In this document: one piece after another, positions 13,420 to 59,753 of the stretch
Layout: each line of letters opens with the position of its first letter
Position numbering within the stretch: position 1 is the first letter of the stretch
NCBI GenBank assembly: GCA_051313645.2
Contig: JBNRSN020000029.1
Location: 49,972,001 to 50,036,000 of the forward strand
Direction: 5' to 3'
Length of the DNA stretch: 64,000 nucleotides
Source: Centroscyllium fabricii
Lineage: Eukaryota
Position numbers and translations under genes: made by a program
Notes under the pieces: model-generated
The model's database searches: none
Told to the model about the DNA's origin: nothing
Seen by the model: only the letters and a program-made list of their open reading frames with translations

Positions 13420-13840
13420 TTTATTGTTTCTGTATTCATTATTGCATGTGATGGATGGATGGATGTTTGGGTGGGACCATGTTCATCAAAGAAATGTGTG
13501 GTGCGTCAGGGGCATGGGTGCATGCGTGAGCGCAGAAAGCAGTCACAGGCACTTGGCAGCCCCAGAAGCACGCTCCCCCAACCACCCCCCCCCCCACCCC
13601 ACACAGATGTCGTTACAATAGTGGGACTCATGCAGGTATGAGCTGTGGAACTGATTGGAGTGTGTCAGTGAGGATGCGCTGTTAGGATGAGGAGAGTAGC
13701 ACAAGCTGGCTTGAGTAGGCTAAGAAAATCTTGCAAGGATGAGCTCCATCCTTGCTTGCCGGCCAGCAACTGTCTCGCGTAATGGTGGTGCTGGCTGGGG
13801 TCGAGCGGCACCAACCCCGTCCTCATCCTCCTCTACCTCC

Positions 13841-13875
<35 letters not shown>

Positions 13876-23800: not shown

Positions 23801-25394
23801 CCCCGGCCTGCACTTGGCCAGCGTAGCACACGGGCCCACAGCCACTGCCGTCTGCTGCGACGTCTCCCTCCCGCAGTCCAGACCCATCGTCCCCCACGCA
23901 TGGAGGCGACACATTTTCCAGACCCTCCATGGCCTGTCCCACCCTGGCACCCGCGCGTCCACCAAGCTGATTTCGGCACGTTTCGTCTGGCGCGGCCTGC
24001 GCAAGGATGTCCGCGCCTGGACCAATGCCTGCACTGCCTGCCAGTGCGCCAAGGTGCACAAGCACATCAAGGCACCGCTGGAAACGTTCACCACACCAGC
24101 TAGACGCTTCGACCACGTCCACATCGACCTGGTCGGACCACTACCGCCATCACGGGGACACACACACGTCATGACCATGGTCGACCGCACCACTCGCTGG
24201 CCAGAAGCGGTCCCACTCATTGCTACCAGCACCACGGACCTGGCCAGGGCTTTCATCGCCACTTGGGTCGCGCGTTTCGGCGTACCCACCGACATCACGT
24301 CAGACAGAGGCCCCCAATTCACGTCGACACTATGGGCGACCATCGCCCGCGACCTTGGTGTAACCCTACACCGAACCACTGCTTACCACCCACAGTCCAA
24401 TGGACTCTGCGAACGGTTCCACCGCTCCATCAAAGCATCCCTGCGGGCCAGTCTTAAGGACTCAACTTGGACAGACCGCCTGCCCTGGGTAATGCTCGGC
24501 CTACGCACAGCGGCCAAAGAAGACCTGCACGCCTCAGCAGCGGAACTCGTCTACGGCCAAACTCTAACCGTGCCAGGCGAGTTCTTCGCAGAGCCAAACG
24601 CTCCCTGGTCAGCAGACCAATACCTGAAGGACTTTAACAACCAGGCACGAGCGTTCAAACCGCTACCGGTGGCCCGGCACGGAGATCCGGCAGCACGTGT
24701 ACCGGACGGCATTAAAAACGCCAAATATGTGTTTGTCCGCCACGACGCACATCGATCGCCACTACAGCCACCGTATGATGGACCGTACAGAGTGCTTCGG
24801 GCGGGAGCTAAAGCTTTCGAACTGAAAATGGGCAACAGGACTGAAACCGTCTCAATAGACTGGCTGAAGCCGGCACACGTAATAGCGGGTGAGACAACAG
24901 TCCCCGCGCAGCCACCAAAACGCAGACGCCCTCCCGCACCACAAACCGCCCACACTCCACCGCAGAACAAGGAGCAGCGCACGACACGTGCCGGCCGCAT
25001 CATCCGGCCACCTCAACGCCTCTCATGAGACTCATTTTTTATTTTTACTTTATTCTCCCTTACAGCATAAGAATCTTTTTTATTTTATTTTATTCTCCCG
25101 TACAGATTCTGGGGGGGAGCTGTGTGGCGACACGCCCACCAAAAGCATTGAATCTGCCTCGTGAGTACTGCGGGGCACAGCCCCACCCATCGGGTGACGT
25201 GATGACATCACCGGGACTTCCGGCGTGATGACGTCACCGGGACTTCCGGCGTGATGACGTCACCAACCGCGGGCACTTTAAATAAGCCTGCTCCAGGTGG
25301 ATCAGTCTCTTTCTGCCTGACCATGCAATGTAATAAACAAGTGTTTTCTGTCCTTCTGGCTCCCGCGTGGTTCTTCAGGCCTGCATGCACTACA
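20860..25394 (+). mobile_element. Full-length Gypsy LTR retrotransposon (family B)
   Basis: LTRs 20860-21105 and 25123-25394 (the 3' LTR has one extra 26-bp unit); TSD AGAC; tRNA-Trp-type PBS TGGTGACCCCGA; PPT GGGGGGGAG. Confidence 0.97.
21405..25028 (+). pseudogene. Gypsy gag-pol with in-frame TAA at 22674-22676 and a damaged 5' gag
   Basis: ORFs 21405-22676 and 22704-25028 share a frame; LCDTGA, YLDD, TDASD, IDLVGP, SDRG motifs. Confidence 0.93.
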
Positions 25395-26518: not shown

Positions 26519-29500
26519 TGTAGAGGCATGCAGGCCTGAAGAACCACGCTGGACACAGAAGATTCGGAAAACAATCATTTAATATTAACTCAGCTATGGC
26601 CAGGTAGCGAAAGAGAGTGAGCCACCTGGAACCAAGGTATTTAAAGGACCCGCGGTTGGTGACGTCACTGCCGGGTGTCCACCTGGCGACGTCATCACGC
26701 CGGAAGTCGCGGTGATGTCATCACGCCGCCCGGCGGGCGGGGCCGTCTCGCAGTACTCCCGAGGCGGATTCGATGGTCCTGGTGGGCGTGTCGCCACACA
26801 GCTCCCCCCCAGAATCTGTGAGGGAGAGCGAAGTTTAAGCTAAAGTAGAAAGGAGCATAAAGTAAAATTAAAAAATGGAGCATAAAAGTTGAGTCTCAGG
26901 CGAGGCGTTGAGGTGGCCTGATGATGCGGCCAGCACGTGTCGTGCGCTGCTCCTTGTTCTGCGTGGGAGTGTGGGCGGGCTTTGGTGCGGTAGGGCGTCC
27001 GCGCTTTGGTGGCTGCGCGGGGACTGTTGTCTCACCCGCCATTACATGTGCCGGTTTGAGCCGGTCGATTGAGACAGTCTCAGCTCTGTTTCCCATTTTA
27101 ATCTGGAACGTTTTAGGTCCCGCCCGAAGCACTCTGTACGGTCCGTCGTACGGTGGCTGTAGTGGTGTTCGATGTGCGTCGTGGCGGACAAACACATACT
27201 TGGCATTTTCGATGCCGTCTGGAACACATGCTGCCGGCTCTCCGTGCCGGGCCACCGGAAGTGGTTTGAACGCCGCTGCCTGGTTATTGAAGTCTTTGAG
27301 GCAGCGGTCGGCTGACCAGGGGGCGTTGGATTCTGCGACGAACTCGCCTGGTACGGTTAGGGGTTGGCCATAGACAAGTTCTGCCGCTGAGGCGTGCAGG
27401 TCTTCCTTGGCCGCTGAACGCAGGCCGACCATTACCCAGGGCAGGCGGCCGGTCCAGGTCGCGACCTTAAGGCTGGCCCGCAGGGAAGCTTTGATGGAGC
27501 GGTGGAACCGTTCGCAGAGGCCATTGGCCTGTGGGTGGTAGGCGGTGGTTCGGTGCAGTGTTGCCCCGAGGTCGTGGGCGATGGTTGCCCATAGGGTTGA
27601 GGTAAATTGGGGGCCCCTGTCTGATGTGATGTCGGTGGGGACGCCGAAACGTGCGACCCAGGTGGCAATGAAGGCCCTGGCCAGGTCCGCGGTGGTGGTA
27701 GCGGTTAGGGGGACCGCTTCTGGCCAGCGGGTGCTGCGGTCAACCATGGTCATGACATGTGTATGTCCCCGTGATGGTGGTAGTGGTCCGACCAGGTCGA
27801 TGTGGACGTGGCTGAAGCGTCTAGCTGGGATGACGATCATTTCCACTGGTGCCTTGATGTGCTTGTGCACCTTGGCGCGCTGGCAGGCATTGCAGGTGTT
27901 GGTCCAGGCGCGGACATCCTTGCGCAGGCCGCGCCAAACGAATCACGCAGAGATCAGCTTTGTGGACGCGCGGACACCGGGGTGGGACAGGTCATGGAGG
28001 GTCTGGAAGATGTGTCGCCTCCATGCGTGGGGGACGACGGGTCTGGGCTGCGGGAGGGAGATGTCGCAGCGGACCTCCGTGGCTGTGGGCCCGTGTGCTA
28101 CGGTGGCCAAGAGCAGGCCGGGGAGGTTGGTAGCTGGGTCGAGCAGATCGGGGTCGGTCAGTTGGTCGGCCGCCAGTTTGGCGTAGTCGACGGCCGTTTG
28201 AATGGAGTTGATGGTGGGGCGTGAGAGGCAGTCAGCGACCACGTTGTCGCGGCCGGCGATGTGCTGTATGTCGGTGGTAAACTCCGACACAGCCGCGAGC
28301 TGGCGCTGCTGCCTGGCCGACCAGGGTTCAGAGATCTTAGCCATTGCAGACACAAGTGGCTTGTGATCCACGAAGGCTGTAAAGTGGCGGCCCTCTAGGA
28401 GGAAGCGGAAGTAGCGCACTGCGAGGTAGAGAGCGAGTAGCTCCCTATCGAAGGCGCTGTACTTGACCTCCGGGGGCCGGAGTTGTCGGCTGAAAAAGGC
28501 CAGGGGTTGCCAGGAGTCGCCTGTCCACTGCTCAAAGACTGCTCTGACTGCGCGGTCGGAGGCGTCGGTGGTGAGGGCTACTCTGGCGTTGGGCCTAGGG
28601 TGGCTGAGGAGCGTGGCATTGGCCAGGGCGGTTTTGGTTTCGGTAAAGACGGTGGAGGCTTCGGCCGTCCACTCGACTGCAGCCTTGTTGGACTGCCCGC
28701 GGGTGGCCTGATAGAGGGGGGCCATGAGAGCGGCTGCTCCTGGGATGAAGCGGTTATAGAAGTTAACCATCCCGAGGAATTCCTGCAGCCCCTTGATGGA
28801 GTGCGGGCGGGGGAATTCCTGGACCGCCTGCACCTTGGAGGGCAGGGGTATGGCCCCGGTCTGCGAGATGTGGTGGCCGAGGAAGTCAATCGTCTCGAGG
28901 CCAAATCGACATTTGGAGGGGCTTAATATAAGGCCGTGTTCGGCCAGGCGGTTGAAAAGGGCCCTGAGATGGAGGAGGTGTTCCTGGGGGGAGGTGCTGG
29001 CCACGAGGATGTCGTCTAGGTAGACAAACGTGAACTGCAAGTCCCGTAGGACTGAGTCCATGAGGCGCTGGAAGGCCTGGGCCGCGTTTTTGAGTCCGAA
29101 GGGCATTCGGAGGAATTCAAATAATCCAAATGGGGTAATAACGGCTGTCTTAGGGACGTCCGCCGGGTGCACTGGTACCTGGTGGTAGCCCCGTACCAGG
29201 TCGATCTTGGAAAAGACCGTGCAGCCGGCTAGCCTTGCTGAGAAATCTTGGATGTGGGGTACGGGGTACCTGTCTGGGGTGGTGGCGTTGTTGAGGCGGC
29301 GGTAGTCTCCGCAGGGGCGCCAGCCACCGCCGGGTTTGGGGGCAATGTGGAGGGGGGAGGCCCAGGGGCTGCTGGAGCGGCGGATTATGCCGAGTTGTTC
29401 CATGATGTGGAACTCGGTGCGCGCGATCTCCAGCTTGGCCGGGTCCAGCCTGCATGCGTGGGCATGGACTGGAGGGCCTGTGGTGGTGATGTGATGCTCC

Positions 29501-31096
29501 ACCCCATGCTTGGCCGTGCGGGCTGTGAAGGTGGGGTTGGTTAGGGCTGGGAACTCCGCGAGCAGCGTGGCGTACGTGTCGGAGTTCCGGGCTCGGCAGT
29601 GGGACGCTGCGTGGGTCTGGTGTGCCGGCCCTGTGGAGCATGGGATGGTCGACATGTTGTGGATGTCGACCAGGCGGCGTCGGGTAACGTCGACCAGGAG
29701 GCCGTGGGCGCAGAGAAAGTCGGCCCCGAGTAGGGGTATTTTGACTTGGGCTGTGATGAAATCCCACTTGTACGTGTGGCCTGCTAGCTTGATGGTAAGC
29801 TGGCGGGTGCCGAACGTAACTATCTCAGAGCCATTTGCGGCTTCAAGTGGTGGGCCTTGGGTGCCTTGCTTGGTTTCTGCGGGGGAGGCTGGCACGATGC
29901 TGTGCTGCGCGCCTGTGTCACAGAGGAAGCGGAGGCCTGAGCCACTGTCCGTGACGAAGAGTAGTGCTCCAGAGCGGCCTACGGACATGGTGGGGCTTGG
30001 GCTGGTTTGGGGTTTGAAGGTGCAGGGCTGGACGCAGCGCTGCGCTTTAGCTTCAAACCTGGTGTGGTAGTAGCACCAGCCGGGGCCTGTGGTGCGTGGC
30101 TTTTTATGGGTCCGCACCGGTCTGGGTTGGGACCTGGGGCCGGGCCTGGGGTGCGCGTAGTACTGCTCCGGTGGAGCAGCAGTGGGTTGGCACGTGGCGG
30201 CTCGGGTGCGCTCGGCCCTCATCAGCTTGTCGGCCTCCTGAGCCAGTTGCTCCTTCGTATAGTGCTCAAGGACCGTCAGAGCCGGTCTGACGGAGGGGGG
30301 CAGTTTAAGGAGGAACAAGGCGCGCTTAATGGTGGCCGGGTCGCAATTGAGCGCTTCCATTTGGGCCCAGAGGTCCGATGGGTCTGCGTCCCTGAGTTCG
30401 GGGAGGTTAATGAGCTGGCAGTCGCGCTCAAATTGGGTGGGGGTGAATTTTTGTAGCAGCGCGGCCTTAAGCGTTTCATACCTGCCAGCAGTTGGTTCGT
30501 GCTGTATCGATGACCACATTCGGTCGATCGTGGGCTGTGAAAGGGCCGCGAAGAGCAGGCTGTATCGATCGTCCCCCTGTACGCCATGGATGCGGTAGGT
30601 GTTCTCTGTGTTGAGGGACCAGGCCGCTGGACGGAGTTCCCAGAACTCTGGTAAGTTTGGGATTTGGCCGTAGTTCTGGCCCCGTCTGTGGAGTCGTGCT
30701 GTTCCGCTCCCTGCTGGCATGGTGGTTGTGATTCAACTGAGGCAGCTTGGCCCTTAGTCCTGCAGCAACTGCTTCATTGTTCCCTTGGAATTCGTTCCAA
30801 GTATCGAGGTCACCACTGTAGAGGCATGCAGGCCTGAAGAACCACGCTGGACACAGAAGATTTGGAAAACAATCATTTAATATTAACTCAGCTATAGCCA
30901 GGTAGCGAAAGAGAGTGAGCCACCTGGAACCAAGGTATTTAAAGGACCCGCGGTTGGTGACGTCACTGCCGGGTGTCCACCTGGCGACGTCATCACGCCG
31001 GAAGTCGCGGTGACGTCATCACGCCGCCCGGCGGGCGGGGCCGTCTCGCAGTACTCCCGAGGCGGATTCGATGGTCCTCTTGGGCGTGTCGCCACA
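26519..31096 (-). mobile_element. Full-length Gypsy LTR retrotransposon (family B relative)
   Basis: 280-bp LTRs 26519-26798 and 30817-31096; TSD GGAG; PBS TGGTGACCTCGA; PPT. Confidence 0.97.
26896..30720 (-). pseudogene. Gypsy gag-pol single frame with one premature TGA at 27943-27945
   Basis: The 925-aa ORF and the 324-aa integrase ORF are in the same frame. Confidence 0.93.
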
Positions 31097-39001: not shown

Positions 39002-42000
39002 GAACATAAGCAGGAGTCGGCCAATCGGCCCCTCGAGCCTGCTCCGCCATTCAATAAGATTGTGGCGGATCCAATCTTGGCCTCAACACCACTCTCCCCA
39101 TACCCCTTGACTACCTTGTGGTTCAAATGTCTGTCAATCTCCGCCTTGAATATATTCACTGACTCTCTGGGGTAGAGAATTCCAAAGATTCACAGCCCTC
39201 TGAGAAGAACGTCCTCCTCATCTCTGTCTTAAATGGGCGACCCCCCCCCCCCCTGCCTTATTCTGCAACTATGCCTCCTAGATATAGATTCCCCACTAGG
39301 GGAAACATCGTCCCTGCGTCCACCTTGTCAATCCCCCTCAGAATCTTATGTTTCAATAAGATCACCTCTCATTCTTCTAAACTCCAATGAGTATCGGCCC
39401 AACCTGCTCAACCTCTCTTCAAAGTCAACCCCTTCATCCCAGGAATCAACCTCGTGAACCTTCTCTGTACTGCCTCCAATGCAAATATATCCTTCCTTAA
39501 TTATGGAGACCACAACTGCACACAGCATTCCAGGTGTGGTCGCACCAGCGCCCTGTAAAGTTGCATCAGAACTTCCCTACTTATATACTCCATACCCCTC
39601 GCAAGAAAGGCCAACATAGGAGCAGGATTCGGCCCCTCGAGCCTGCTCCGCCATTTAATGAGATCATGGATGATCATCCAAATTCAGTACCCTGTCCCTG
39701 CCTTCTCCCCATATCCCTTGAAATCTTTAGCCTTAAGAAATATATCCAACTCCTTCTTGAATATGTTTAATGAATTGGCCTCTACTGCCTTCTGTGGTAG
39801 AGAATTCCACAGGTTCACCACTCTCTGGGTGAAGAAGTTCCTCCTCATAGAGTCATAGAGTAACACAGCACAGCAAGAGGCCCGTCGCGTCCGTGCTGCC
39901 CATCAATCCCAGTCTACTAATCCCATTTTCCCGCATTTGGTCCGTAGCCTTGTATGCTGTGGCATTTCAAGTACTCATCCAAATGCTTTTTGAATGTTGA
40001 GGGTTCCTGCCTCTACCACCCTCTCAGGCAGTGAGTTCCAGACTCCAACCACCCTCTGGGTGAAAAAGTTCTTCCTCACATCCCCACGATACCTCCTGCC
40101 ACTTACCCTAAAATTATGCCCCCTAGTTATTGACCCCTTAACCAAGCGCTAAAGTTCCACTCCATCGACCTTATCTATTCCCCTCATAATTTTGTACACC
40201 TCAATCAGGTCCCCCCTCAGCCTCCTCTGCTCCAAGGAGAACAACCCCAGCCTATCCAGTCTCTCTTCATAGCTGAAGCTCTCCAGCCCAGGCAGCATCC
40301 TGGTGAATCTCCTCTGCACCCTCTCCAAAGCTATTACATCCTTCCTATAGTGTGGCGACCAGAACTGCACACCGTACTCCAGCTGTGGCCTTACCAGCGT
40401 TTTGTACAGCTCCATCATAACCTCCCTGCTCTTGTATTCTATGCCTCAGCTAATGAAGGCAAGTATCCCATATGCCTTTTTAACCACCTTATCCACCTGT
40501 CCTACTGCCTTCAGGGACCTATGTACCTGCACACCAAGGTCCCTCTGATCCTTTGCCTTCCCTAGCGTCCTACCATTCATGGTATATTCCCTTGCCATGT
40601 TAGACCTACCGAAATGCATCACCTCACACTTTTCAGGATTAAATTCCATTTGCCACTGTTCCGCCCATCTGACCAACTCGTCTATGTCGTCCTGCATGTT
40701 GTGGTTTGACCATCACCCTCTGCCTCCTGTCACTAAGCCAGTTTTGGATCCACTGTGCCAAGGTGCCCTGGATCCCATGGGCTCTTACCTTCTTGACCAG
40801 TCTCCTATGCGGGACCTTATCCAAAGCCTTACTAAAATCCATGTATACCACGTCCACTGCACTACCCTCATCCACACACCTGGTCACCCCTTCAAAAATT
40901 TCAATCAAATTAGTCAGACACGATCTTCCCTTGACGAAGCTATGCTGACTATCCTTAATTAATCCTTGCCTCTCCAAGTGGAGACTAATTTTGTCCCTCA
41001 GAATTCTTTCTAGTAATTTCCCCACCACTGATGTCCGGCTCACTGGCCTGTAATTCCCTGGTTTATCCCTACTACCTTTCTTGAATAATGGCACTACATT
41101 GGCCATTCTCCAGTCCTCCAGTACATCCCCTGTGGCCAGAGAGGTTCTGAAAATTTGTATCCGAGCCCCTGCAATCTCTTCCTTAGCCTCACCCAGCAGC
41201 CTGGGATACATCTCGTCAGGGCCTGGAGACTTATCCACTTTTAAGCCTGCTAAAACCGCTAGTACCTCCTCCCTGTCAATACTAATATGATCAAGTGTAT
41301 TGCATTCCTCCTGTCTTATTTCAATGTCCACATCGCCCTTCTCCTCAGTGAACACAGATGCAAAAAATTCATTCAAAACCCCACCCACATCCTCTGGCTC
41401 TACACACAGATTCCCACTTTGGTCCCTAATGGGCCCCACCCTTTCCCTCATTATCCTCTTGCCCTTAATATACTTATAAAACATCTTAGGATTTTCCTTT
41501 ATTTTGCCCGCCAGGGTTATCTCATGGCCCCTCCTCGCTCTCCTAATTTCTTTTTTAAGTAACCCCCTGCACCTTCTATACTCCTCTAGAGCCTCCACTG
41601 TCTTTAGTTCTTTATGTCTGCCGAAAGCCCCCCTTTTTTTCCGAATCAATTCACGTATATCCCTTGACATCCAAGGTTCCCTGGGCTTATTGGTTCCACC
41701 CTTGACCTTAAGGGGAACATGCTTCCCTTGTACTTTCTCAATTTCCTTTCTGAACGCCTCCCACTGTTATGATGCGGACTTTCCTTCGAGTAGTTGGTCC
41801 CAGTCCACTTGGGCCAGCTCCAGCCTTATATTAAAATCGGCCTTGCCCCAATTTAGAACCTTTATTTCTGGTCCATCATTGTCCTTCTCCATTACTACCT
41901 TAAATATTACCGAATTATGGTCACTGTCCCCAAAGTGCTCTGCTACTGACACTTCTTCCACTTGCCCGTCCTCATTTCCCAAAATTAAGTCTAATACCGC

Positions 42001-42735
42001 CCCCTCCCTTGTAGGACTTCCTACATACTGGCTCAAAAAGCTCTCCTGGATGCACTTTAAGAATTCTGCACCCTCTAAGCCCTTCACACGTTGGCTATCC
42101 CAGTCAAAATCGGGAAAGTTGAAATCCCCCACTATTACTACCCTATTATTTCCACACTTCTCTGTCCTAAATGGCTTGCCCCTTCTCCTTAGACTGTGAC
42201 CCCTGGTTCTGGACTCCCTGGCCATCAGGAACATCCTTCCTGCATCTAGTCTGTCTAGTCCTGTTAGAATTTTATAAGTTTCAATGAGATCCCCTCTCAT
42301 TCTGCTAAACTCCAGAGAGTATAAGCCCAATCTCTCCTCGTACGTCATTCCTGCCATCCCAGGTATCAGTCTGGTGAATCTTTGCTCTATTCCCTCCATG
42401 GCAAGAACATCCTTCCTCGATAAGGCGACCAAAACTGCACAAAGTGTGGTCTCACCAAGGCCCTGTACAACTGCAGCAAGTCATCCTTGCTCCTGTACTC
42501 AAACCCTCTTGTTATGAAGGCCAACATACCATTTGCCTTCTTAACCGCCTGCTGCACCTGCATGCTCGCCCTCAGTGACTGGTGCACAAGGACACCCAGG
42601 TCTCGTTGCACTTCCCCTTCTCGCAATCTATTGCCGTTCAGATAAAAATCTGCCTTCCTGATTTTGCCACCAAAGGGGATAACCTCACATTTATCCACAT
42701 TATACTGCATCTGCCCAATCACCCAACCTGTCAAT
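39002..42735 (-). mobile_element. Nested CR1 LINE fragments including a long EN-RT segment (about 39848-42160)
   Basis: VIVGDFNFPD, KSPGPD, NYRPVS, YMDFSKALDKVPH, VRPQLEYGVQFWSP. Confidence 0.9.
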
Positions 42736-43993: not shown

Positions 43994-44550
43994 CGGGTTG
44001 AAGTTCATTAATCCGGCACCTGAAAAACCAGCAGCTTCAGTCGTTCGGCACAGATTTTCCCGACTGCCCAGCGCATACGCAGACAATTCAAAATGGTCGG
44101 GGCTGGGCTTCCCTTTCACCTAACATATACTCACTGGATCCCGGCTTAGTGACCACCCCGATGCCGATGGTGAATCCCAGGCCCAGAAAATGAGCTGTTG
44201 CCGCCTTTCGCAGGACGCGGTACAGCCAAAACTCAGCGCCCGGCTCCCCACGGCTGCCGGAGGCTGCTGCGTGCTGACGTCACTGCGTACCGAAGCTGGC
44301 GTGCGGCGGCGTCACGTGAGCCATGCGTTGGGCCTCGGGCCCGCTGGAGCCGTGCAGCCCGCTCCCTGATCCACCATGGGCAGTAGCATCGAGTGCGGCC
44401 TGTGCGTTCCACCCGACCCGAGGGCTGAAAATGACCATCCAGGTACATTTTGAATGCTCTGCACATGTTCCGCCGAAGCTTCAATCCTTCGGCGTAATCA
44501 TTCGGCAGGGTGCTGGTCCCGACCCTGCCGGATTAACGAACATCGACCTG
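43994..44550. mobile_element. pogo/Tigger-like MITE
   Basis: TA TSD; same family as 38296-38889. Confidence 0.85.
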
Positions 44551-45089
44551 TATCGCTAATGGAGACCGTGAATCCACCGGAGTGTCATAAAAAAATCATC
44601 TGCTTCATCTAATCGTTTTTTAGCGAAGGAAATCTGCCGCCCTTGCCCGGTCTGGCCTATATGTGACTCCAGACCCACAGCAATGTGGTCGACTCTTAAC
44701 TGCCCTCTGAAACGGCCTAACCAGCCACTCGGTTGTACCAAACCGCTACAAAGTAGCATCACCACAGGGACTGCAGCGGGTACCCGGCCCCTCCCTTCTA
44801 GAGGGCAAATAAGGATGGGCAATAGATGCTGGCTTTGCCAGCAACGCCCAGATCCCGTGAACAAATAATAAAAAGAAGTAAGAAATCTGATCTCTGGCAT
44901 CTCTTTTGTCGCACTGTAATACTGTGTGTACGTACAATTATTGAGCGTTTTGCGATTTTTGGGTCTCGCTGGGATTCCTTGAGTTTGATGTGACTACATT
45001 GCAGCGTTGCCAGGAAAATACCCTCTAACCCGAACCCAACATCTGGAATTGGCCCATCAGAGCAGAGGCTGAATGCCGAGTATTCAACA

Positions 45090-46195: not shown

Positions 46196-46829
46196 CTGAC
46201 TTTTTAAAACTGAACCTGCAGTTGAAAAGTGAGGTAAACAATTTCTATTATTGTGCATTGGCACTTGCTGAGAGTTGTGGGGCCAGAATTTCAGGTCCCC
46301 ACGGGTGAGTACGCGCTGGGTACTCACCCGTAAGCCCAACGGAAGTGCTGGTTTCGTGCATTCGCGGGAAACCGGGACTTCCGTTCCCTTAAAGGAAGGG
46401 GTTCACGGGTGGAACGCGTGCGCCGGAGAGGCAGCGCACACGCCTGGAACTTTTTTTTCCACAAGTTTCTCTGGGAGGGTAAGTCTGCAGGAGCTACGCT
46501 TGTAAAAAGCAGGCGCAATGCCTGCTTTTAACAAATGTAAAGAGTCACACAACACCAGATTTATAGTCCAACGGTTACCCTGAGCTGAACTGAATTGAAG
46601 GCTGCAGGGGGAGGGGCTTTTTGCTCATGATTTGCATCTCGGTCGGTGTCAAGTCACTTATGGTGAAGTTACTCCCTTTTTTCTCCTGTCAGAAAACGAG
46701 CAGTTCAGCCATTTCCCCCACTTTGCGACAGATTACTGTTTGCGATCAAAAGTTGAGTGTACAGGTCGTCGCTGCTTGACTGGCAGGCTGAACATTCTGG
46801 CTGATTCCAGGCGTTTAGAACGTTAGAAA

Positions 46830-49123: not shown

Positions 49124-49435
49124 CAGGTCTGACACCGTTAATCTGGCACTGTCGGGACCAGGCCGGATGCCGGACTAGTGAAAAATCTGAACGACTGAAG
49201 CTTCGAGCGCATGCGCAGACCATTCAAAATGGCTGCCACGCATATGCAGACCACTCAAAATGGCTGCCGCGCATATGCAGACCACTCAAAATGGCTTCCG
49301 TGCATGCGCAGACCATTCAAAATGGCTGCCGCGCATGCGCAGACCATTCAAAATGGCCACCGCGCAGACCAGTCTGGGAGAGGCCCGGATTTGTGCCGGG
49401 CGACTGAAGTTTCCGGATTAACGGTGCCGGACCTG
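49124..49435. mobile_element. pogo/Tigger-like MITE with about 30-bp internal tandem repeat
   Basis: TA TSD; CAGGTC..GACCTG termini; unit GCGCATGCGCAGACCATTCAAAATGGCTGCC. Confidence 0.87.
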
Positions 49436-50137: not shown

Positions 50138-50504
50138 TTCTCAGTCCTAAATGGCCGACCCTTTATTCTGAGACTGTGACACCTGGTTCTGGACTCCCCA
50201 GCCAGGGGAAACATGCTCCCTGCATCGACCCTATCAAGCCCTGTAAGAATTTTGTATGTTTCAATTAAGATTACCTCTCAATCATCTAAACTCTTGTGGA
50301 TTATATGCCTAGTCTACTCAACCAAGTTCTTGGGTCTGTAGCGTCACATTGTGCCACCAGGAGAGCTGAGCGAAACCGTCTTTAATGTTTTTTTTTACAT
50401 CTGTCCCACAGGTGGACAAGGAACCAGGCAGCGGTTCACATGTTGCTCCTTGTGTTGAGGTACGTGAGGCATTGGTTATTACCGACTGTCCGCAAGGCTT
50501 CTTT

Positions 50505-50579
50505 GAGTGTTGTGATGAAACTCAGGTTTTGTTTTACTGAGTAAGACTGTGATGATAACCCGCAGCGCACTGAATGCTT
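50505..50579 (+). ncRNA. SNORD48: Box C/D snoRNA, SNORD48-like
   Basis: C GTGATGA 50512, D' CTGA 50537, C' GTGATGA 50549, D CTGA 50570, terminal stem; guide CCCGCAGCGC resembles recalled U48 (CCGCAGCGCTCTGA); D box 81 nt from the 3' splice site. Confidence 0.82.
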
Positions 50580-51449
50580 CCAGCTGCAGGCTGCTGCCTG
50601 ACCTACCCCGCTCGTGGCTGTCACCTGTAACCTGGCTACTTGTTTGTTCCGCAGGTTCGGAGGATGGGATCCGGCACAGCGCAAGAGGTGCGACAATTCA
50701 CTTATTTACCCACCCCCCGCTGCAGTGCAGAGTTAGCCCCTTGACATTTGCTGGGCTCCTGGCTCGGCAACACCTCAGGTTTTTAAAAAGTCCCTACCCT
50801 GCCTCTTTCCTCCCCCCCCCCCCCCCCCCCCCCCCCCCGCCTTCCGATCTCTGTAACCTTCTCCAGCCCGACAACCCTCACATCTTCAGCTCCTCCAATC
50901 CTGGGTTTTTGCACGTCCCAGATTTTAATCGCTCCTCCGTTGGTGGCCGGACCCTGTAGCTAGATTCCCTGCCGGAACTGCTTGCTTTCTCTCTCCTCCT
51001 CACTTTTCCCCACCCCCCCCTTCCCCTCTCGATCATCTGTCCCAAATATCTCTCTGTGGTTCCATGTCTCATTTTGCTAATAACTCCTGTGAAGCTCCTT
51101 GGGGATGCTATATAATTCCAACTTGTTACTGGATCCTCCTTATCTGAATGGCCTGGGTTGAATTCCTTTGCGGAGCGGCTCTTGGCCTAGGCAGGGTTGT
51201 GCGACAGTTGACCCTCCCCTATCCTTGGACTGGGGGGGGAGAACCAGCCACGGCTGACGCCAACCTGCCAAGTCGGTCTGCACACAGCCGACGGCATCGT
51301 GTTACCCGCTCCTGTGCTTGCAAACTGGCTTTGTTTTAACATCTTTCCTGTTTTGCAGCCTGGAGACAGGACATCTCGCGACCCCGGACTCCGCGTTGTG
51401 GCCAGGTACACGAACGATGATTTAGATCCGCAAGTTAAACCTATACCCC

Positions 51450-51526
51450 GAGTGTTAATGATGACACTTTACAGGCTAGAGTTACTGAGTTAAACGGTGA
51501 TGATACACACAGTGCTCTGAACACTC
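51450..51526 (+). ncRNA. SNORD52: Box C/D snoRNA, SNORD52-like copy 1
   Basis: GAGTGT/ACACTC stem, ATGATGA, guide CAGGCTAGAGTTA-CTGA (wobble-compatible variant), C' GTGATGA, D CTGA. Confidence 0.88.
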
Positions 51527-51751
51527 CTGAATCTGGTCCTGCGGTTGTTTCCGTGGCTCTTCGGGAGGGGGCTCTGTTTAACGTTTCTCTGTGTGTTGCA
51601 GGTTAGTTGATCGGGATGGACAAATGGTGTCGTGCAATTACATGCCTGCACAATTTACAGCGCAGAAACCGGCCAAACTGCTCCATCCCAGCTCCACACG
51701 CTGAGACCGGGTGCGTGATCATTCATTACAACCTGTAGTTAACGGTATACC

Positions 51752-51829
51752 CGAGTGTTAATGATGAGACTTTACAGACTAGAGTTACTGAGTTAAACCT
51801 GACGACAGACACAGTGCTCTGAATGCTCG
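51752..51829 (+). ncRNA. SNORD52: SNORD52-like copy 2
   Basis: Boxes and stem intact; guide ACAGACTAGAGTTA complements 28S UGACUCUAGUCUG. Confidence 0.9.
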
Positions 51830-52037
51830 CCTCTGCTGCACTTCACCCGGCGCACCTCTGGAGGGCAGCGTTTAATCCAGTTGTTGCTATTTTACAGGGA
51901 GAACTGAACAAGCAGCTGAATCGTTCTTTGCACTGCTCAGCAAGGTGAGTGGACTCTGTCGAGTTAGTTTTTTGTCGGCATTTAATACTGTTAACGGATA
52001 TTCAGTAAGGCTAGGTGCCTTCAGAGAGAGGGACAAC

Positions 52038-52121
52038 TCGGGAATGTTAATGATGACACTTTACAGACTAGAGTTACTGAATCAACCCTGGTGATACCCA
52101 CAGTGCTCTGAACACTCCCGA
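52038..52121 (+). ncRNA. SNORD52: SNORD52-like copy 3
   Basis: TCGGGAATGT/ACACTCCCGA stem; C, D' and D boxes and guide intact. Confidence 0.88.
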
Positions 52122-52174
52122 TCGCGATCTGGTCCTTCCTCTCTTGGTTTTAGGGGCCGTGTTTCACATTCTTT

Positions 52175-53221
52175 GGAACTGGCTGGCTCAGAGAAAGCAG
52201 AGGGTCGTGGTAGAGGGCCAATACTCGGGTTGGAGACCTGTCACCAGTGGGGTGCCACAGGGGTAGGTGTTGGGGCCACTACTATTTGTGATCTTTATCA
52301 ATGACTTGGAGGAGGGGACTGAGTGGTGGGTCAGCAAATTTGCAGATGACACAAAGATTGGGGGAGTAGTGGACGAGGAGGAAGGAAGTAGAAGGCTTCA
52401 GCGGGGTATAGATAGGATGCAGAGCTGGGCTGAAGAATGGCAAATGGAGTTTAACACGGGGAAATGCACTTCGGTAGGGCAAATAGGAATAGAGAATATA
52501 GGGTCAACGGCAGGGTCCTGAGCGAAGCCGAGGAGCAAAGGGATCTGGGAGTATATGTACACAGATCATTGAAGGCTGCCACCCAGGTGGATATGGCAGT
52601 AAAAAAGGCCTATGGTGTATTGGCCTTCATCAACAGGGGAATAGAGTTTAAGAACCGGGAGGTCATGCTATAGCTGTACAGGTCACTGGTCAGACCACAT
52701 TTGGAGTACTGTGTGCAGTTCTGGGCACCGTACTACAGGAGAGATGTGGAGGCGTTGGAGAGGGTACAGAGGAGATTCACCAGGATGCTGCCGGGAATGG
52801 GGGGAAAGTCGTACGAGGAGAGGTTGAGGGAGCTGGGACTCTTCTCCCTGGAACGGAGAAGGAAGAGGGGGGACTTGATAGAGGTGTTTAAGATGATGAA
52901 GGGGATTGATAGAGTAAACGTGCACAGACTCTTTCCCCGCGTGGGAAGAACGACCGCAAGAACGAACACAAGATTCAAGGAGGAAGATTCAGAAGGGATG
53001 GCAGGGGCAAGTTCTTTGCACAGAGAGTGGTCGGGGAGTGGAATAGGCTACCATCTGAAATAGTGGATGCGGACAGTCTGGGAGCTTTTAAAAGGATGAT
53101 AGATAGGTACATGGAGGGGAAGGAAGAGTAGGGGGGACAGGAAAAATCAGAGACGGACTAAGCGCGGCACTACATTGAGGGCCCAAGGGCCTGTACAGTG
53201 CTGTATAATCTATGTTCTATG
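52175..53221 (+). mobile_element. CR1 LINE inserted in the polypyrimidine tract of a snoRNA intron
   Basis: TSD TTCTTT (52169-52174, 53222-53227); empty-site paralog near 58605-58626; FADDTKIG motif. Confidence 0.9.
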
Positions 53222-53330
53222 TTCTTTCTGTTTGCAGGTTTACAGATGGATGGATGGAAGAGTCCTATTGTGTGTTGTAGTGAGGTATGTGAATCATTAA
53301 TTATAACGAGGTCTTTAACTGGTAGCGGCG

Positions 53331-53402
53331 GTGTTAATGATGAGACTTTACAGACTAGAGTTACTGAATTAACCTTGACGATAGACACAGTGCTCTGAAC
53401 AC
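53331..53402 (+). ncRNA. SNORD52: SNORD52-like copy 4
   Basis: Boxes and guide intact; extended outer stem TAGCGGC/GCTGCTA. Confidence 0.9.
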
Positions 53403-53559
53403 TCCTGGCTGCTAGATGTTACCTGGGCAATACTGGCAGCAGACTATTATATTCTCTCCGTTTTCACAGGACAAGGGAACGCACAGGACAAAGGAATAAC
53501 GTACAACCCTACTGCTTACGAGAGGAACAAGAGGTGAGTGCAGAAATGTAACTTATTTA

Positions 53560-54635
53560 TTGGCCTTTATTGCAAGGGGGTTGGAGTATAGCAGGAAGGA
53601 CATCTTGCTGCAATTACATAGGGCTTTGGTGAGACCACACCTGGAGTACTGTGCACCGTTTTGATGATCTTACCCAAGGAAGGATACACTTGCTATTTTA
53701 GAGGGGGTGTAATAAAGGTTCAGCAGACTGATTGCTGGGATGAGAGGGTCTTCCTATGGTGAGAGGTTGAGTAGACTAGGCCTGTATTATCTGGAGTTTA
53801 GGCCTATATTTGGAGTTTAGAAGAATGAGAGGTGATCGCATTGAAATAAATAAGATTCTGAGGCGGGGTAGATGCTGAGAGGCTGTTTTTTCCCCCCCCT
53901 GGCTGGAGAGTCTAGAACTAGGGGCCATAGTCTCCGGATAAGTCATTTATGACGAGATGAGAAATTTCTTCACCCGGAGGTGTTTGAATCTTTGGAATTC
54001 TCTGCCGCAGAGGGCTGTAAATGCTGAAGCGATTGAGTATATTCAAGGTAGATCAATAGGTTTTTGGATACTTGGGGAATCGAGAGATATGGGGAATAGG
54101 GCGGGAAGGGTTCGATGGGGTAGACGTAGAGGAGATGTTTCACTTGCGGAGGAGACCTTTACTCGGGTACATAAATACAAGATAATCACTAATAAATCCA
54201 ATAGGGAATTTAGAAGAAACTTCTTTACCCAGAGAGTGGCGAGAATGTGGAACTCGCTTCAACAGGGAGCGGTTAATGCGACCACGGAGGAATTACTGCG
54301 ACCACGGAGTGGTTAATGTGACCACGGGGGCAGTTAATGGGACCGGGGGGGGGGGGGTGCGGTTAATGCTATCAGCATGGAGTCATTTAAGGGGAAGCTA
54401 AGAAACGCGTGCGGGAGAAAGGAATAGAAGGCTATGTTGATGGAGTGAGCTGAAGAAGGATGGGAGGAGGCTCGTGTGGAACATCAACAGTGGCCTGGAC
54501 CAGTTGGGCCGAATGGCCTGTTGTGCTGTAAGTACCATGTCAGAAGTAGACTTGAGGTAGAAGATTAGCCATGATCTTATTGAACAGCAGAGCAGGTTCA
54601 AAGGGTCACACGGCCGACTCCTGCTCCTAATTCTT
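53560..54635 (+). mobile_element. CR1 fragments, partly duplicated at about 55650-56160
   Basis: Near-identical start GGCCTTTATTGCAAGGGGGTTGGAGTATA after the homologous exons. Confidence 0.8.
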
Positions 54636-55075
54636 GTGTTTGTCGTAGTTAATATTCTGCAGGGGTGATTGGCACTCGATCAGTGCCCAAGTTGGACCTG
54701 CTAACCAGACACTGGGTGTTGAACACTCCTGACTGCAGTAGCACTGTGTTGTACATTTTTATGGGTTGTTTTAACGTCTTCTGTTTTGTGGACCGGAGGA
54801 AGGGGAGATGTTGGGTGCTGAAGTGTGCAGATTGCCAACTCGGTGACATGTTTCTCCCCCGCCCCCAACTTTCTCATTGAGCGCAGGAGGTATCACTGGC
54901 TCCGTGGGTAAATGACACAGCCTGGGGTCACACCCATAGCCAGGGTCCCTGGTTCGACAGCCCTGGTCTGTGCTGAGTTGGTTCATCACGGGGGCTGGTC
55001 AGGGGCGAGAAGTGGCCGCGGAGAACTCTAGCAGGGACCGGTGCTTTCCCAAGAGGGGGATTTAAAAACTTCAAC

Positions 55076-55151
55076 GGGAGTGTTGATGAGACTTTGCAGA
55101 TTAGAGTTCCTGAGTTAACCTTGATGACACACACCGTGCTCTGCATTCTCC
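55076..55151 (+). pseudogene. Degenerate SNORD52-like copy 5
   Basis: C box TTGATGA, mutated guide GCAGATTAGAGTTC, D box CTGC. Confidence 0.75.
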
Positions 55152-55424
55152 AGCGCTATACGTTACCTGATGCCCGTCTTGAGGGCCGTGTTTAATCTTT
55201 TTGTTTCTATTTTACAGCTTGGAGTAGAGAACGAGGAGCGGAATCGTTCTCTCATAGCGTAGCACGGTGAGTGGATTGTCCCCGTTCTCCAGCAAGCAGC
55301 ACTTCGGTTCGATTTTTCCCGGTCACGTTTTTGTTACAGCAACTTTTAATATTGAAACTTAACGAATATTCAGAATTGGCCCCAGTGAACTCCAAGCTTG
55401 GTGCCTTCAGAGAGGGGGACAACT

Positions 55425-55506
55425 CGGGAATGTTAATGATGACACTTTACAGACTAGAGTTACTGAATTAACCTTGACGATAGACACAGTGCTCTGAACA
55501 CTCCCG
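55425..55506 (+). ncRNA. SNORD52: SNORD52-like copy 6 (recombinant)
   Basis: Boxes and guide intact; 5' flank is copy 3/7 type, 3' half and flank are copy 4/8 type. Confidence 0.9.
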
Positions 55507-56169
55507 GCTGCTAGATGTTACCCGGGCAATACTGGCAGCAGACAGCGGTTCATTATATTCTCTCTCTGTTTTCACAGGACAAGGGAATAACGTACAACCC
55601 TGCTGCTCACCAGAGGAACAAGAGGTGAGTGCAGAAATGTAACTTATTTATTGGCCTTTATTGCAAGGGGGTTGGAGTATAAGGGGAAGGACATCTTGCT
55701 GCAATTACGTAGGGCTTTGGTGAGACCACACCTGGAGTACTGTGCACAGTTTTGATCTCCGTAGCGAAGGAAGGATACACTTGCTATTTTTAGAGGGGGT
55801 GCAACATCGTTCAGCAGACTGATTGCTGGGATGAGAGGGTCTTCCTATGAGTAGAGATTGAGTAGACTAGGCCTGTATTGTCTGGAGTTTAGAAGAATGA
55901 GAGGTGACCTCATTGAAACATAAGATTCTTTGGGGGGGATTGACAGGGTAGATGCTGAGAAGCTGTTTTTCCCCTGGCTGGAGAGTCTGGAACTTGGGGG
56001 CTGAGTCTCCGGATAAGGGGTCGACCATTTATGATGAGATGAGAGATTTTTTCACTTTGAGGGTTGTGAATCTTTGGAATTCTCTTCACCCACTGAATTG
56101 ATGATATATTCAACCGCTCAGTAGCTATTTGGATACTAAGGGAATCGAGGGATATGGGTGGTAAGGGTT

Positions 56170-57930
56170 TTTTGTTATTCGTTTGAGATGTGGGCGTCAT
56201 TGGCAAGGCCAGCATTTATTGCCCATTTCTAATTGCCCTTGAGAAGGAGGTGGTGAACCGCCTTCCTGAACCAGCGACGATGAAGGATCGGCGATATATT
56301 TCCAAGTCAGGATGGTGTGTGACTTGGAGGGGAACTTGGAGGTGGTGGTATTCCCATGCGCTTGATGCCCTTGTCCTTCTAGGTGGAAGAGGTCGCAGGT
56401 TTGGGAGGCACTGCCGAAGAATCCTTGGCGCGTTGCTGCAGTGCATCTTGTAGATGGTACACACGGCAGCCACGGTGCGCCGGTGGTGGAGGGAGTGAAT
56501 GTTGGAGGTGGTGGATGAGTTGCCAATCCAAGCAGGCTGCTTTGTCCTGGATGGTGGCGAGCTTCTTGAATGTTGGGGCTGCACTCATCCAGGCCAGTGG
56601 AATGTATTCCATCACACTCCTGACTTGTGCCTGGTGGAGAGGCTTTGGTTAGTCAGGGGGCTGAGACACCCACCACAGAATACCTAGTCTCTGATCTGCT
56701 CTTGTTGCTGCAGTATTTATGTGGCTGGTCCAGTTCAGTATCTGGTTACTGGCATCTCCCAGGATGTTGGGTGATTCGGTGATGGTAATGCCGTTTAATG
56801 TCATGGGGCGGTGGTTAGACTCTCGCTTGTTGGAGGTAGTCATTGTGTGGCGTGAATGTTACCTGCCACTTCAGCCCAAGCCTGAACATTGTCCAGGCCT
56901 TGTTGCATGTGGGCATGGACTGCTTCATTATCTGAGGGCTTGCGAATGGCACTGAACACTGCAGTCATCAGCGAACATCCCACTTCTGACCTTGCGTTGG
57001 AGGGAAGGTCATTGATAAGCAGCTGAAGATGGTTGGTCTTCGGACACTGCCCTGAGGAACTCCTGCAGTGATGTCCTGGGGTTGTGATGATTGACCTTCA
57101 AGCACTACAACCATCTTCCTTTGTTAGGTATGACTCCAGCCAGTGGAGAGTTTTTCCCCCCCAATTCCTATTGACTTCAGTTTTACTAGGGCTCCTTGAT
57201 ACCACACTTGGTCAAATGCTGCCTTGATGCCAAGGGCAGTCACCCTAACCTCTGGAATTCAGCGCCTTTTGTGCATGTTTGGCCAGGAGCCAAGTGGGCT
57301 GGGCTTGGAACCCAAACTGGGCATCGGTGAGCAGGTTATTGCTGAGTAGGTGCCGCTTGATGGAATGTGTCATTGACAGCCCTGTCACTTTGCTGATTGA
57401 GAGTAGACTGATGGCCCGGATTGGATTGTCCTGCTTTTTGTGGACCGGACATACCTGGGCAGTTTTCCACATTGTCGGATAGATGCCAGCGTGTGGCTGT
57501 ACTAGAACAGCTTGGTTAGAGGTGCGGTTAGTTCTGGAGCACAGGTTTTCAGCACGACAGCAGAGATATCGTCAGGGCCCATAGCCTTTGCTGTATCCCG
57601 TGCACTCGGCCGTTTCTTTATCACGTGGAGTGAATCGAATTGGCTGAAGACTGGCTTCTGTGATGGTGGGGACCTCGGGAGGAGGCCGATATGGATCATC
57701 CACTCGGCACTTTTGGCTGAAGATGGTTGCAAACGCTTCAACCTTGTCTTTTGCACTCATGTACTGGGCTCTACCATCATGGAGGATGGGGATATTGATG
57801 GAGCCTCCTCCCGTTAATTGTTTAATGGTCCACCACCATTCACGACTGGATGTGGCAGGACTGCAGAGCTTTGATCTGATCCGTTGATTGTGGGATCGCT
57901 TAGCCCTGTCTAGCATGCTGCTTCTGCTTT
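56170..57930 (-). mobile_element. CR1/L2-superfamily LINE, decayed
   Basis: KAMGPDDISAVVLKTCAPEL; TVAAVCTIYKMHCSN. Confidence 0.85.
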
Positions 57931-58479
57931 TTAGCATAGAGTACAAAAAAAAACTATCTCCGCTTTGAATATACGCAGCGAGTTGGCATCCACGGCCCTC
58001 GGGCAGAGAATTCCAAAGATTCACAACCGTCTTGAGTGAAGAAATTCCTCCTCATCTCGGTCTTAAATGGCCTATTTTATATCTGTCTTCACAGTGGAAG
58101 ACACAAAGCAGACCAAAAATGGCAGGGAACCAAGGGTCTAATGAGGGGAGGAACTTAACGTAATTAATATAAGTAGAGGGGTGGGGAAGTACTAGAGAAA
58201 CTAATGGGACTGAAACCTGATGCATGTCTTGAGGGCACTGTTTAATCTCTCGTTTTATTTTACAGCTTGGAGTAAAGAACGAGGAGCTGAATCGTTCTCT
58301 CTCCATGTAGCACAGTGAGTGGATTGTCACCGTTCTCCAGCACGAAGCAACTTCCGGTTAGGTTTTCCCGGTCACGCTTTTGTTATGGCAATGTTTTTAA
58401 TATTGATACTTAATGGATATTCAGAATTGGCCGTACGCCAGTAGGGCTTGGTGCCGTCAGAGAGAGAGAGAGGGACAAC

Positions 58480-58563
58480 TCGGGAATGTTAATGATGACA
58501 CTTTACAGACTAGAGTTACTGAATCAACCCTGGTGATACCCACAGTGCTCTGAACACTCCCGA
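58480..58563 (+). ncRNA. SNORD52: SNORD52-like copy 7
   Basis: Essentially identical to copy 3; D box 73 nt from the 3' splice site. Confidence 0.9.
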
Positions 58564-58723
58564 TCGCGATCTGTTGCTTCCGCTCCTGGTTTTAGGGGTC
58601 GTGTTTCACATTCTTTCTGTTTGCAGGTTTACAGATGCAAGGATGGCAGAGTCTATAAAGTTGTGTGCTGTAGTGAGGTATGTGAATAATTAATTATAAC
58701 GAGGTCTTTAACTGGTAGCGGCG

Positions 58724-58795
58724 GTGTTAATGATGACACTTTACAGACTAGAGTTACTGAATTAACCTTGACGATAGACACAGTGCTCTGAACAC
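58724..58795 (+). ncRNA. SNORD52: SNORD52-like copy 8
   Basis: Near-identical to copy 4; D box 80 nt from the 3' splice site. Confidence 0.9.
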
Positions 58796-59479
58796 TCCCG
58801 GCTGCTAGATGTTACCCGGGCAATACTGGCAGCAGACAGCGGTTCATTATATTCTCTCTCCGTTTTCACAGGACAAGGGAACGCACAGGACAGCCGGGCG
58901 ATCACCACCACAGACAGCAGTTAGAAGGGTCTTACTTTTTTCACTCTCTGCAGGTTACGGGGAATCCACGAGCCCAGAGATTGGTGTCCTCCCGCGTCCA
59001 CCGAACGAATGGGTGGAGAGGAATCTCTCTGCAAGCTGCTGCCTGGCTGCAGGTGACCTGTTGAGCAGCGAAGCCCTGTCCCCTCCCACCGGAGTCTGCG
59101 ACCGTGCTGATTTTGGTGTGTTTGAAGGGTGAAGATGTGGACAGGCCCTACCCTTGGTGCTGGTAGATTTACACTACCTCTTGTAGACTTGTATCTGTAA
59201 TAAAATCAGCATAACTCTTGTGATGGTGTTGTCTTTATTTAAATTTGCTTTCTTCTTCGTCCCACATACCCACTTGAATGCTAGGCAACGAGGTTCTCTT
59301 TGTTCCTTCACCAATTGTCCAGATTGCCCCTTCTCCGGTACGGAAGTGTGGAAACAGCCTAGTGGGTAACGGCATTGACTAGTGTGGTACTGATCCTTAC
59401 AGCATGACAGCCTAGTGTTCCCAGAACTGAGCTCTCTCTATTTTCAGGTATTTATCCAATTCCCTTTTGAAAGTTATTA

Positions 59480-59753
59480 CAGGTTTGGCAGCGTTAATCC
59501 GGAAACTTCAATCGTCCGGAACGAATCCGGACGACTGGTCTGCGCATGTGCAAAATGGCTGCTGTGCTTGGCTGCTCAGGCCCGGGCCTCCCTGAACGAT
59601 AAGTGTGCGCATGCGCGTGCCAAAGCATCAATCAAAATGGCTGCCGGCCTTCGCGGTGGCCATTTTGAATGTCTGCGCACGCACTTGCCAAAGCTTCAAT
59701 CGTTTGGATTTTTGACTAATCCGGCACTGGCCTGGTCCAGAGTGCTCAACCTG
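59480..59753. mobile_element. pogo/Tigger-like MITE (inverse orientation of the 36017 family)
   Basis: TA TSD; CAGGTT..AACCTG termini. Confidence 0.8.

Follow-up and report, generated by a model that had tools for sequence, protein, structure and literature searches.

In zebrafish, the noncoding host gene FP101887 carries SNORD52A-I (SNORD202), nine copies at one per intron, together with SNORDX (PMC7668251, Ramachandran et al. 2020). Seven of these nine copies are double guides that address LSU-U3904 through the D' element and LSU-C3916 through the D element, with pairing needed at positions 2 to 10 (nine pairs), and methylation of LSU-C3916 was reported as novel to zebrafish (PMC7668251). 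On chromosome 8 of Xenopus tropicalis, snoRD48a-b and snoRD52a-d lie within 4 kb (PMC6984369 supplement, Deryusheva et al.; PMC8797249 Table S3). The SNORD52 homologues in the alignments of Kehr et al. are reported to be without the C3916 element. Methylation of U3904 is reported to affect human stem cell fate (bioRxiv 2022.09.24.509301), which gives guide dosage some interest. Among the open-access records listed, we found no account of a shark array or of C3916 outside zebrafish.

The window analyzed here is a stretch of 64 kb from Centroscyllium fabricii. As the first-pass annotation had described, it holds nine C/D units, eight of them SNORD52-like and one of another type; one of the eight proves to be degenerate. 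The features are listed below, with copies A to H each starting at box C.

50412..58677, plus strand: eleven small exons, predicted from sequence only, all CAG...GT
50412-50459, 50655-50687, 51359-51405, 51602-51710, 51898-51944, 53238-53284, plus strand: predicted exons 1 to 6
53470-53533, 55218-55266, 55578-55624, 58266-58314, 58627-58677, plus strand: predicted exons 7 to 11
58872..59220, plus strand: predicted terminal exon, with an alternative acceptor at 58953 and AATAAA at 59199
50512..50573, plus strand: U0, SNORD48-type box C/D RNA, single copy in the genome (boxes, 28S pairing)
51458..51520, plus strand: SNORD52-family copy A; D' guide of 13 pairs with 2 G-U, D element of 1 G-U and 8 Watson-Crick pairs (Rfam, 28S pairing)
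51761..51822, plus strand: SNORD52-family copy B (Rfam, 28S pairing)
52050..52111, plus strand: SNORD52-family copy C, identical to G, with a repeat of ~1 kb before the predicted 3' splice site
52175..53221, no strand assigned: high-copy repeat inserted into the copy C intron, resembling a LINE when inspected (contig depth)
53337..53398, plus strand: SNORD52-family copy D (Rfam, 28S pairing)
54690..54735, plus strand: decayed remnant of the 3' half and flank of a copy, without intact boxes and missed by the RNA model search
55083..55144, plus strand: copy E, degenerate, with box C TTGATGA, box D CTGC and a D element broken at position 6; a likely pseudogene
55436..55497, plus strand: SNORD52-family copy F, identical to H
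58492..58553, plus strand: SNORD52-family copy G (Rfam, 28S pairing)
58730..58791, plus strand: SNORD52-family copy H (Rfam, 28S pairing)

The 12-nt guide, allowing at most one mismatch, occurs 7 times in the 64 kb against 0.23 expected, a count that none of 100 shuffles matched. The units span 62 to 63 nt from box C to box D, carry consensus boxes C and D in eight of nine cases, and are closed by terminal stems of 5 to 7 bp when G-U pairs and one mismatch are permitted. The terminal stem resembles 18S near U799, a similarity that we set aside as coincidental. By folding z-scores, whole units fold no better than their shuffles, which is expected of C/D RNAs and lends no support. The window and 50 kb of flanks yielded no further copies in an RNA model search, and genome-wide the SNORD52 unit is matched only at this locus (7/7 matches, 6/6 exact pattern matches). 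The layout had been described as one unit per intron, mostly 70 to 81 nt before the 3' splice site. One unit per intron applies to nine of the eleven predicted introns, those at 50688-51358 and 55625-58265 having none. The predicted 3' splice site lies 71 to 81 nt past box D in eight of nine units; in unit C, 1126 nt intervene because of the repeat insertion.

Two predicted donors, GTGCGA and GTGCGT, are weak. Across two predicted spliced models the longest ATG open reading frame is 57 to 75 aa, and the host gene, which had been proposed to end in AATAAA and does carry that signal at 59199, is predicted to be noncoding. A Pfam scan of 30 open reading frames in the window returned transposon domains only, plus one weak match on a sub-20-aa scale. 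No flanking host gene was recognized within 30 kb downstream, where the open reading frames look retroelement-like by eye. Besides the repeat in the intron of copy C, other high-copy repeats occupy ~53560-54650 and ~55650-58200; summed contig depth over the repeats is 1e5 to 1e6, against <20 in unique bins.

A scan of the 64 kb at Rfam gathering thresholds gave no matches. Below those thresholds, SNORD52 (RF00276) is the top family for all eight units (25.4 to 34 bits, E 2.7e-4 to 0.064), every one under the cut-off of 45 bits; two teleost-type SNORD52 copies used for comparison (L021) score 60.7 and 48.3 bits. Annotation by Rfam threshold therefore misses the array entirely, and the Rfam check proposed earlier holds for the ranking of SNORD52, with the SNORD52 and SNORD48 scores all remaining under gathering. 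The SNORD52 (U52) identity proposed in the first-pass annotation is supported by that ranking and by the guide and its target in the species' own 28S rRNA. At U2765, the D' guide is paired over 13 consecutive positions in seven of eight copies and over 12, starting at position 2, in copy E; its +5 position falls on the U3904 equivalent, and 0 of 150 shuffles equaled the match.

The D guide of U0 makes 10 Watson-Crick pairs (positions 2 to 11) at C1413 of the same 28S rRNA, the C1868 equivalent, which lies 10 nt past the A of the SNORD38 site; 6 of 150 shuffles equaled this score somewhere in rRNA. In human SNORD48, pairing at C1868 begins at position 2 and extends over nine pairs (PMC5027482). 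Against the SNORD48 model (RF00282), U0 scores 11.2 bits (E 2.8; gathering, 36 bits), which is not significant, and a genome-wide RF00282 search found no matches, its controls likewise going unmatched. The SNORD48 assignment thus stands as a type, backed by target and linkage, and not as a significant Rfam match. The D' element of U0 pairs with A2499 (11 pairs, 1 G-U), as well as which 0 of 150 shuffles did. We assign it no target, since the frog table shows no methylation at the A2499 equivalent and the L021 homologue of U0 has a different D' element.

A second antisense element, next to box D and complementary to the C3916 equivalent, was overlooked in the first-pass annotation. It is present in seven of eight copies in exact register (+5). 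Its target, C2777, lies 12 nt downstream of U2765, the spacing that separates C3916 from U3904, and 80 of 83 genomic 28S matches contain the complementary sequence. Positions 2 to 9 form eight Watson-Crick pairs, position 1 adds a G-U pair and position 10 is mismatched; 21 of 150 shuffles equaled this match anywhere in rRNA. The element is homologous to the zebrafish SNORD202 guide. Because its eight Watson-Crick pairs fall one short of the zebrafish nine-pair minimum, it could either methylate or merely anchor. We lean slightly toward its directing at least partial methylation at the C3916 equivalent. The leading alternative, to which we give somewhat less than an even chance, keeps the same host gene and U3904 guiding and regards the box D element either as an anchor of the "extra base-pairing" kind or as a relic in decay, with the C3916 equivalent unmethylated; a nonmethylating element would anchor the U3904 duplex. 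Besides the short pairing, which reaches 12 to 13 pairs in the L021 teleost-type copies, this is favored by the overlap of the D' and D duplexes by one base, given that the extra pairings in PMC3116282 run 4 to 11 bp beside methylation sites and some overlap by 1 to 2 nt. However, those extra pairings are not adjacent to a D or D' box, with one yeast exception, whereas the C. fabricii element abuts a perfect box D, sits at +5 on the cytosine methylated in zebrafish, and is the same in seven of eight copies, unlike the variable spacer on its 5' side.

Across the array, units are 79 to 100% alike, and exons are 64 to 84% alike within a class and 25 to 57% between classes, in agreement with the suggestion that exon-intron duplication kept the guides while the exons diverged. 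Copy F joins a C/G-type 5' flank to a D/H-type body and 3' flank and is likely a recombinant. Unequal crossing-over, acting on a block of several exon-intron units, is the likely route by which the array grew; retroelements would then have interrupted it, and three units would have been lost or damaged (copy E, the remnant at 54700, and an E-type copy deleted near 58200). With C = G and F = H, the block duplications appear to be of recent date, which makes the present copies either young or homogenized. A SNORD115/116-like amplification confined to this lineage would accord with these duplications and with a tree of ten short units that separates the eight array copies from the two of L021, the order within the array being unresolved. 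We consider it improbable: concerted evolution of an old array also predicts grouping within a species, and PMC6984369 gives lower copy numbers in placental mammals. The novelty claimed for the expansion does not survive the copy numbers elsewhere, which are nine in zebrafish, four in X. tropicalis and at least two in L021.

We consider it very improbable that the locus is an assembly artifact or a duplicate cluster that has fallen silent or is decaying, since the three damaged or lost units, the several retroelement insertions, and the failure to identify a promoter or first exon are outweighed by boxes and guides that are conserved where flanks have diverged and by short-read contigs that reproduce most of the distinct spacers. 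Those contigs, from two samples that may be the assembly's own, reproduce most unique intercopy spacers (e.g., 50851-51784, 51762-52052, 54611-55445, 58150-58494 and 58495-58736), no listed piece covering the whole array; contigs from the four runs behave as DNA, without splice joints, and are silent on expression. Given that the genome matches the unit nowhere else and holds U0 once, the locus should be the functional source.

The contig carrying the array also holds 29 of 30 genomic MHC class I matches and an intronless HSP70 cluster. The cluster is 3.7 Mb away and not adjacent, so the linkage is at the level of the chromosome only. The array thus sits on the MHC chromosome, consistent with the proposed link to SNHG32/C6orf48, and the host gene is likely the cartilaginous-fish orthologue of that gene. 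Searches with PF13088 (BNR_2, neuraminidase; NEU1) and PF04515 (Choline_transpo, SLC44; SLC44A4), domains whose multi-exon genes match weakly, gave 3 and 22 genomic matches, respectively, with none on this contig. We hold with considerable confidence that the locus is an SNHG32/C6orf48 orthologue whose nine units, eight of the SNORD52 family and one of the SNORD48 type, would guide 28S 2'-O-methylation. We infer that the host is transcribed and that, after the predicted splicing, the units would be trimmed to box C/D RNAs of ~65 to 70 nt, which likely guide methylation at the U3904 and C1868 equivalents.

This is an ordinary kind of gene with a layout described in zebrafish and frog, and its modest evolutionary addition is the retained second guide element. 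We put at about even the joint proposition that jawed vertebrates inherited the U3904 and C3916 double guide from their common ancestor, with C3916 methylation in cartilaginous fish, an 18S swap in frogs and loss in mammals, and that FP101887 is the SNHG32 orthologue and SNORDX a drifted SNORD48. If so, a multicopy, self-homogenizing SNORD52 array would be ancestral and the human single copy derived. Should the second guide work, the 28S methylation called novel in zebrafish (late-type rRNA) would be as old as the split between sharks and bony fish, and the box D slot would differ in target, being 28S C3916 in fish, 18S U762 in frog and none in human. A guide of eight pairs would also test the minimum-pairing rule.

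SNORD115 and SNORD116 are imprinted, eutherian, largely orphan RNAs present in dozens of copies, arranged as tandem exon-intron-snoRNA units in a noncoding transcript. The resemblance drawn to them earlier holds for this tandem layout but not for function, as the C. fabricii units have canonical rRNA targets and are not of the orphan type. Human SNHG32 (C6orf48; RF00282, RF00276) shares the C1868 and U3904 targets, the order of SNORD48 then SNORD52, and linkage to MHC and HSP70 near HSPA1B, but it has single copies, and the C. fabricii units score below the Rfam cut-offs. The X. tropicalis locus likewise has SNORD48 followed by several SNORD52 copies on one strand within a few kilobases, shares MHC-type linkage, and targets 28S C1516 (= C1868) and U3063 (= U3904); unlike the C. 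fabricii array, three of its four SNORD52 copies have 18S-U762 as a second target. Um3076 and Gm3095 are neighboring entries in the X. laevis methylation table, with none listed between them and hence none at the C3916 equivalent. Zebrafish FP101887 is also a noncoding host of multicopy SNORD52, with the same 8-nt core before box D, and by eye the D element of SNORDX resembles that of U0. It differs in having nine copies rather than eight, a D element of ~12 pairs rather than 8 to 9, and its non-SNORD52 unit last rather than first, and in that expression and methylation were measured there, while the C. fabricii array is known from sequence.

A repeat search of the window recovered a 62- to 63-nt unit in eight copies (units A to H, 51458 to 58791), and the 12-nt guide occurs there seven times at no more than one mismatch, against 0.23 expected by chance. 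No Rfam family reached its gathering score in the window, although SNORD52 was the top family for all eight units (25.4 to 34 bits, below the cut-off of 45). The SNORD52-like array of eight copies proposed in the first-pass annotation is thus borne out in number and family rank, but not at the Rfam gathering level. No match to the unit was found outside the array in the 7.2-Gb genome, and short-read contigs of two samples (four runs) recover most unique spacers between copies. The array is real and well supported. The window also holds the following features:

50512-50573: U0, a ninth C/D unit unrelated to the other eight
4622-13122 (+), 21231-25028 (+), 26899-30732 (-): a reverse-transcriptase open reading frame and three LTR-retrotransposon-type pol regions, long open frames with protease, reverse transcriptase, RNase H and integrase domains
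13723-14880 (-): 386-aa open frame with a DDE_Tnp_4 domain match (Harbinger-type transposase/nuclease)
17249-17842 (-): weak Toxin_13 Pfam match (20 residues, E = 1.6e-4, no stretch passing alone)
40642-42480 (-): LINE endonuclease and reverse transcriptase domain matches in two neighbouring frames
49209-49366: 31-nt tandem repeat preceding the host gene; related copies follow closely behind the gene (59551-59654)

The pol regions at 21231-25028 and 26899-30732 are oriented toward each other. The Toxin_13 match is probably spurious, and the 31-nt repeat is probably a common one, since similar words turn up again in the translations of L016 and L018, two stretches read for open reading frames.

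Around the units, CAG/GT borders allow eleven small exons to be drawn, plus a terminal exon that has AATAAA, the exon/intron structure being throughout a prediction from sequence. Nine of the eleven predicted introns would carry one C/D unit each, and the predicted acceptor lies 71 to 81 nt beyond the unit end in eight units and 1,126 nt beyond it in unit C. Apart from unit C, this predicted gene matches the earlier description of nine singly housed units, mostly some 70 to 81 nt before a 3' splice site, among small exons ending in AATAAA. Neither of two predicted spliced models contains an ATG open reading frame longer than 75 aa. A candidate promoter for the host gene lies at 44001-45000 and 46620-46700, where the sequence is CpG-rich (observed/expected, 0.83 to 0.93), has words resembling CRE and E-box sites, and includes a run of pyrimidines that could be a TOP-type start.

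Targets in 28S, 18S, and 5.8S rRNA were taken from the source genome's own rDNA; rDNA-like copies are spread across many of its contigs. In seven of the eight copies, the antisense element before box D' forms 13 consecutive pairs with 28S, placing guide position 5 on U2765 (human U3904), a pairing equalled by none of 150 shuffles. The first-pass annotation had assigned this U52 target correctly but overlooked the element before box D, which pairs with the next rRNA stretch and places position 5 on C2777 (human C3916), twelve bases past U2765. This second duplex comprises one G-U and eight Watson-Crick pairs in seven of eight copies, and its target sequence is intact in 80 of 83 genomic 28S matches. 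The three deviating copies, all in one cluster (G000:C1:82.68-82.70 Mb), are likely degenerate rDNA. Because 21 of 150 shuffles find a match of this grade somewhere in rRNA, the D-element match by itself is weak; its weight lies in landing on a known site. Alternatively, the D element could be a short extra pairing beside the target and not a guide for C2777 methylation. Such pairings are on record (PMC3116282), but those described there mostly do not lie beside the D box. The D' and D duplexes share one base on the rRNA and therefore may form in turn. In U0, the D element forms ten pairs from position 2, placing position 5 on C1413, the equivalent of LSU-C1868, which has been reassigned to SNORD48 (PMC5027482). 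Considering that U0 scored just 11.2 bits against Rfam SNORD48, we named it SNORD48-type on target and linkage. The U0 D' element (50521-50536) pairs over 11 nt with 28S around A2499; Table S3 of PMC8797249 lists no frog methylation at the equivalent position, and we assign this element no target.

Anatomy, complementarity, and linkage are observed directly. By analogy with established C/D snoRNP biology, RNA polymerase II would transcribe the non-coding host, the transcript would be spliced and its introns debranched and trimmed to C/D RNAs, and fibrillarin would methylate the rRNA base opposite guide position 5. The D element, with eight pairs against the nine (positions 2 to 10) of the zebrafish pairing rule stated in PMC7668251, would be a putative C2777 guide.

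Self-comparison joined 52003-52174 with 58439-58616 (92%), 53222-53490 with 58611-58892 (92%), 55165-55506 with 58215-58562 (83%), 51753-52120 with 55078-55506 (70%), and 55431-55587 with 58725-58881 (99%). The 5' flank of unit F is C-type, 87% alike to C, and its body and 3' flank are H-type, with 100% identity over 60 nt; such a mosaic would result from unequal crossing-over within the core or from conversion. A unit remnant near 54700 and an orphan 3' flank near 58215 of the type found at E, a degenerate copy, mark lost units. The claim that guides are conserved while exons diverge holds, since units are 79 to 100% alike and exons far less so (64 to 84% within classes, 25 to 57% between them).

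An MHC class I exon on the array contig (C811) best matches PDB 6LUP (112 bits; runner-up, 92), named as nurse shark UAA in PMC8236899, which makes a cartilaginous-fish source likely. Of 30 MHC class I matches in the genome, 29 fall on this contig. The contig also carries a cluster of intronless HSP70 genes (46.12-46.30 Mb), seven or more of them full length along with broken pieces, at a distance of 3.7 Mb to the array. Human SNORD48 and SNORD52, which guide C1868 and U3904, respectively, both reside in the lncRNA SNHG32, drawn with HSPA1B in bioRxiv 2022.09.24.509301. Since snoRNA content, order, and MHC/HSP70 chromosome agree, the host gene is likely orthologous to SNHG32, on these grounds and not on adjacent genes.

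The first-pass annotation had regarded the expansion as lineage specific. Among the entries listed, a literature search found no cartilaginous-fish instance, nor the age that one implies for the C3916 element, nor a reading of zebrafish SNORDX as SNORD48; copy numbers for fish may be given in Kehr 2014 and Makarova 2009. In frogs, the supplement of PMC6984369 places snoRD48a-b, followed by snoRD52a-d, inside 4 kb of X. tropicalis chr8. It gives 18S-U762 as second target for three of the four snoRD52 copies, and the paper describes copies as more numerous in frog than in human. Table S3 of PMC8797249 and the rows taken from its Table S1 include X. laevis Um3076 and Cm1525 but nothing at the C3916 equivalent, the putative target of the shark D element.

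According to PMC7668251, the non-coding zebrafish host FP101887 carries nine SNORD52-family copies among its ten SNORDs; seven of the nine guide both U3904 (through D') and C3916 (through D). That paper measured methylation of C3916, which is specific to late-type rRNA and given as novel to zebrafish. C1868 is absent from the searched supplemental file of that paper. By eye, the zebrafish and shark array D elements have an 8-nt core in common, and that of the zebrafish orphan SNORDX is close to that of U0. The single match of our search, L021, is animal host DNA from a metagenome, a contig of 1.8 kb read here as teleost-like. Two double-guide SNORD52 copies exceeding the Rfam cut-off (12 to 13 pairs at C2777) are followed by two copies of a C1413-directed unit, the zebrafish order. 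The latter two units, all on the minus strand of L021 like the SNORD52 copies, are identical, of SNORD48 type and missed by Rfam; they sit in a tandem duplication of about 400 nt, and their D' element pairs over 9 nt just 3' of the C1868 equivalent. L021 bridges zebrafish SNORDX and shark U0. The eight array copies cluster apart from those of L021 in a tree, a pattern that fits independent expansion and concerted evolution alike. The proposed novelty does not stand: with nine copies in zebrafish FP101887, the shark array is of a published kind, its copy number and double guide included.
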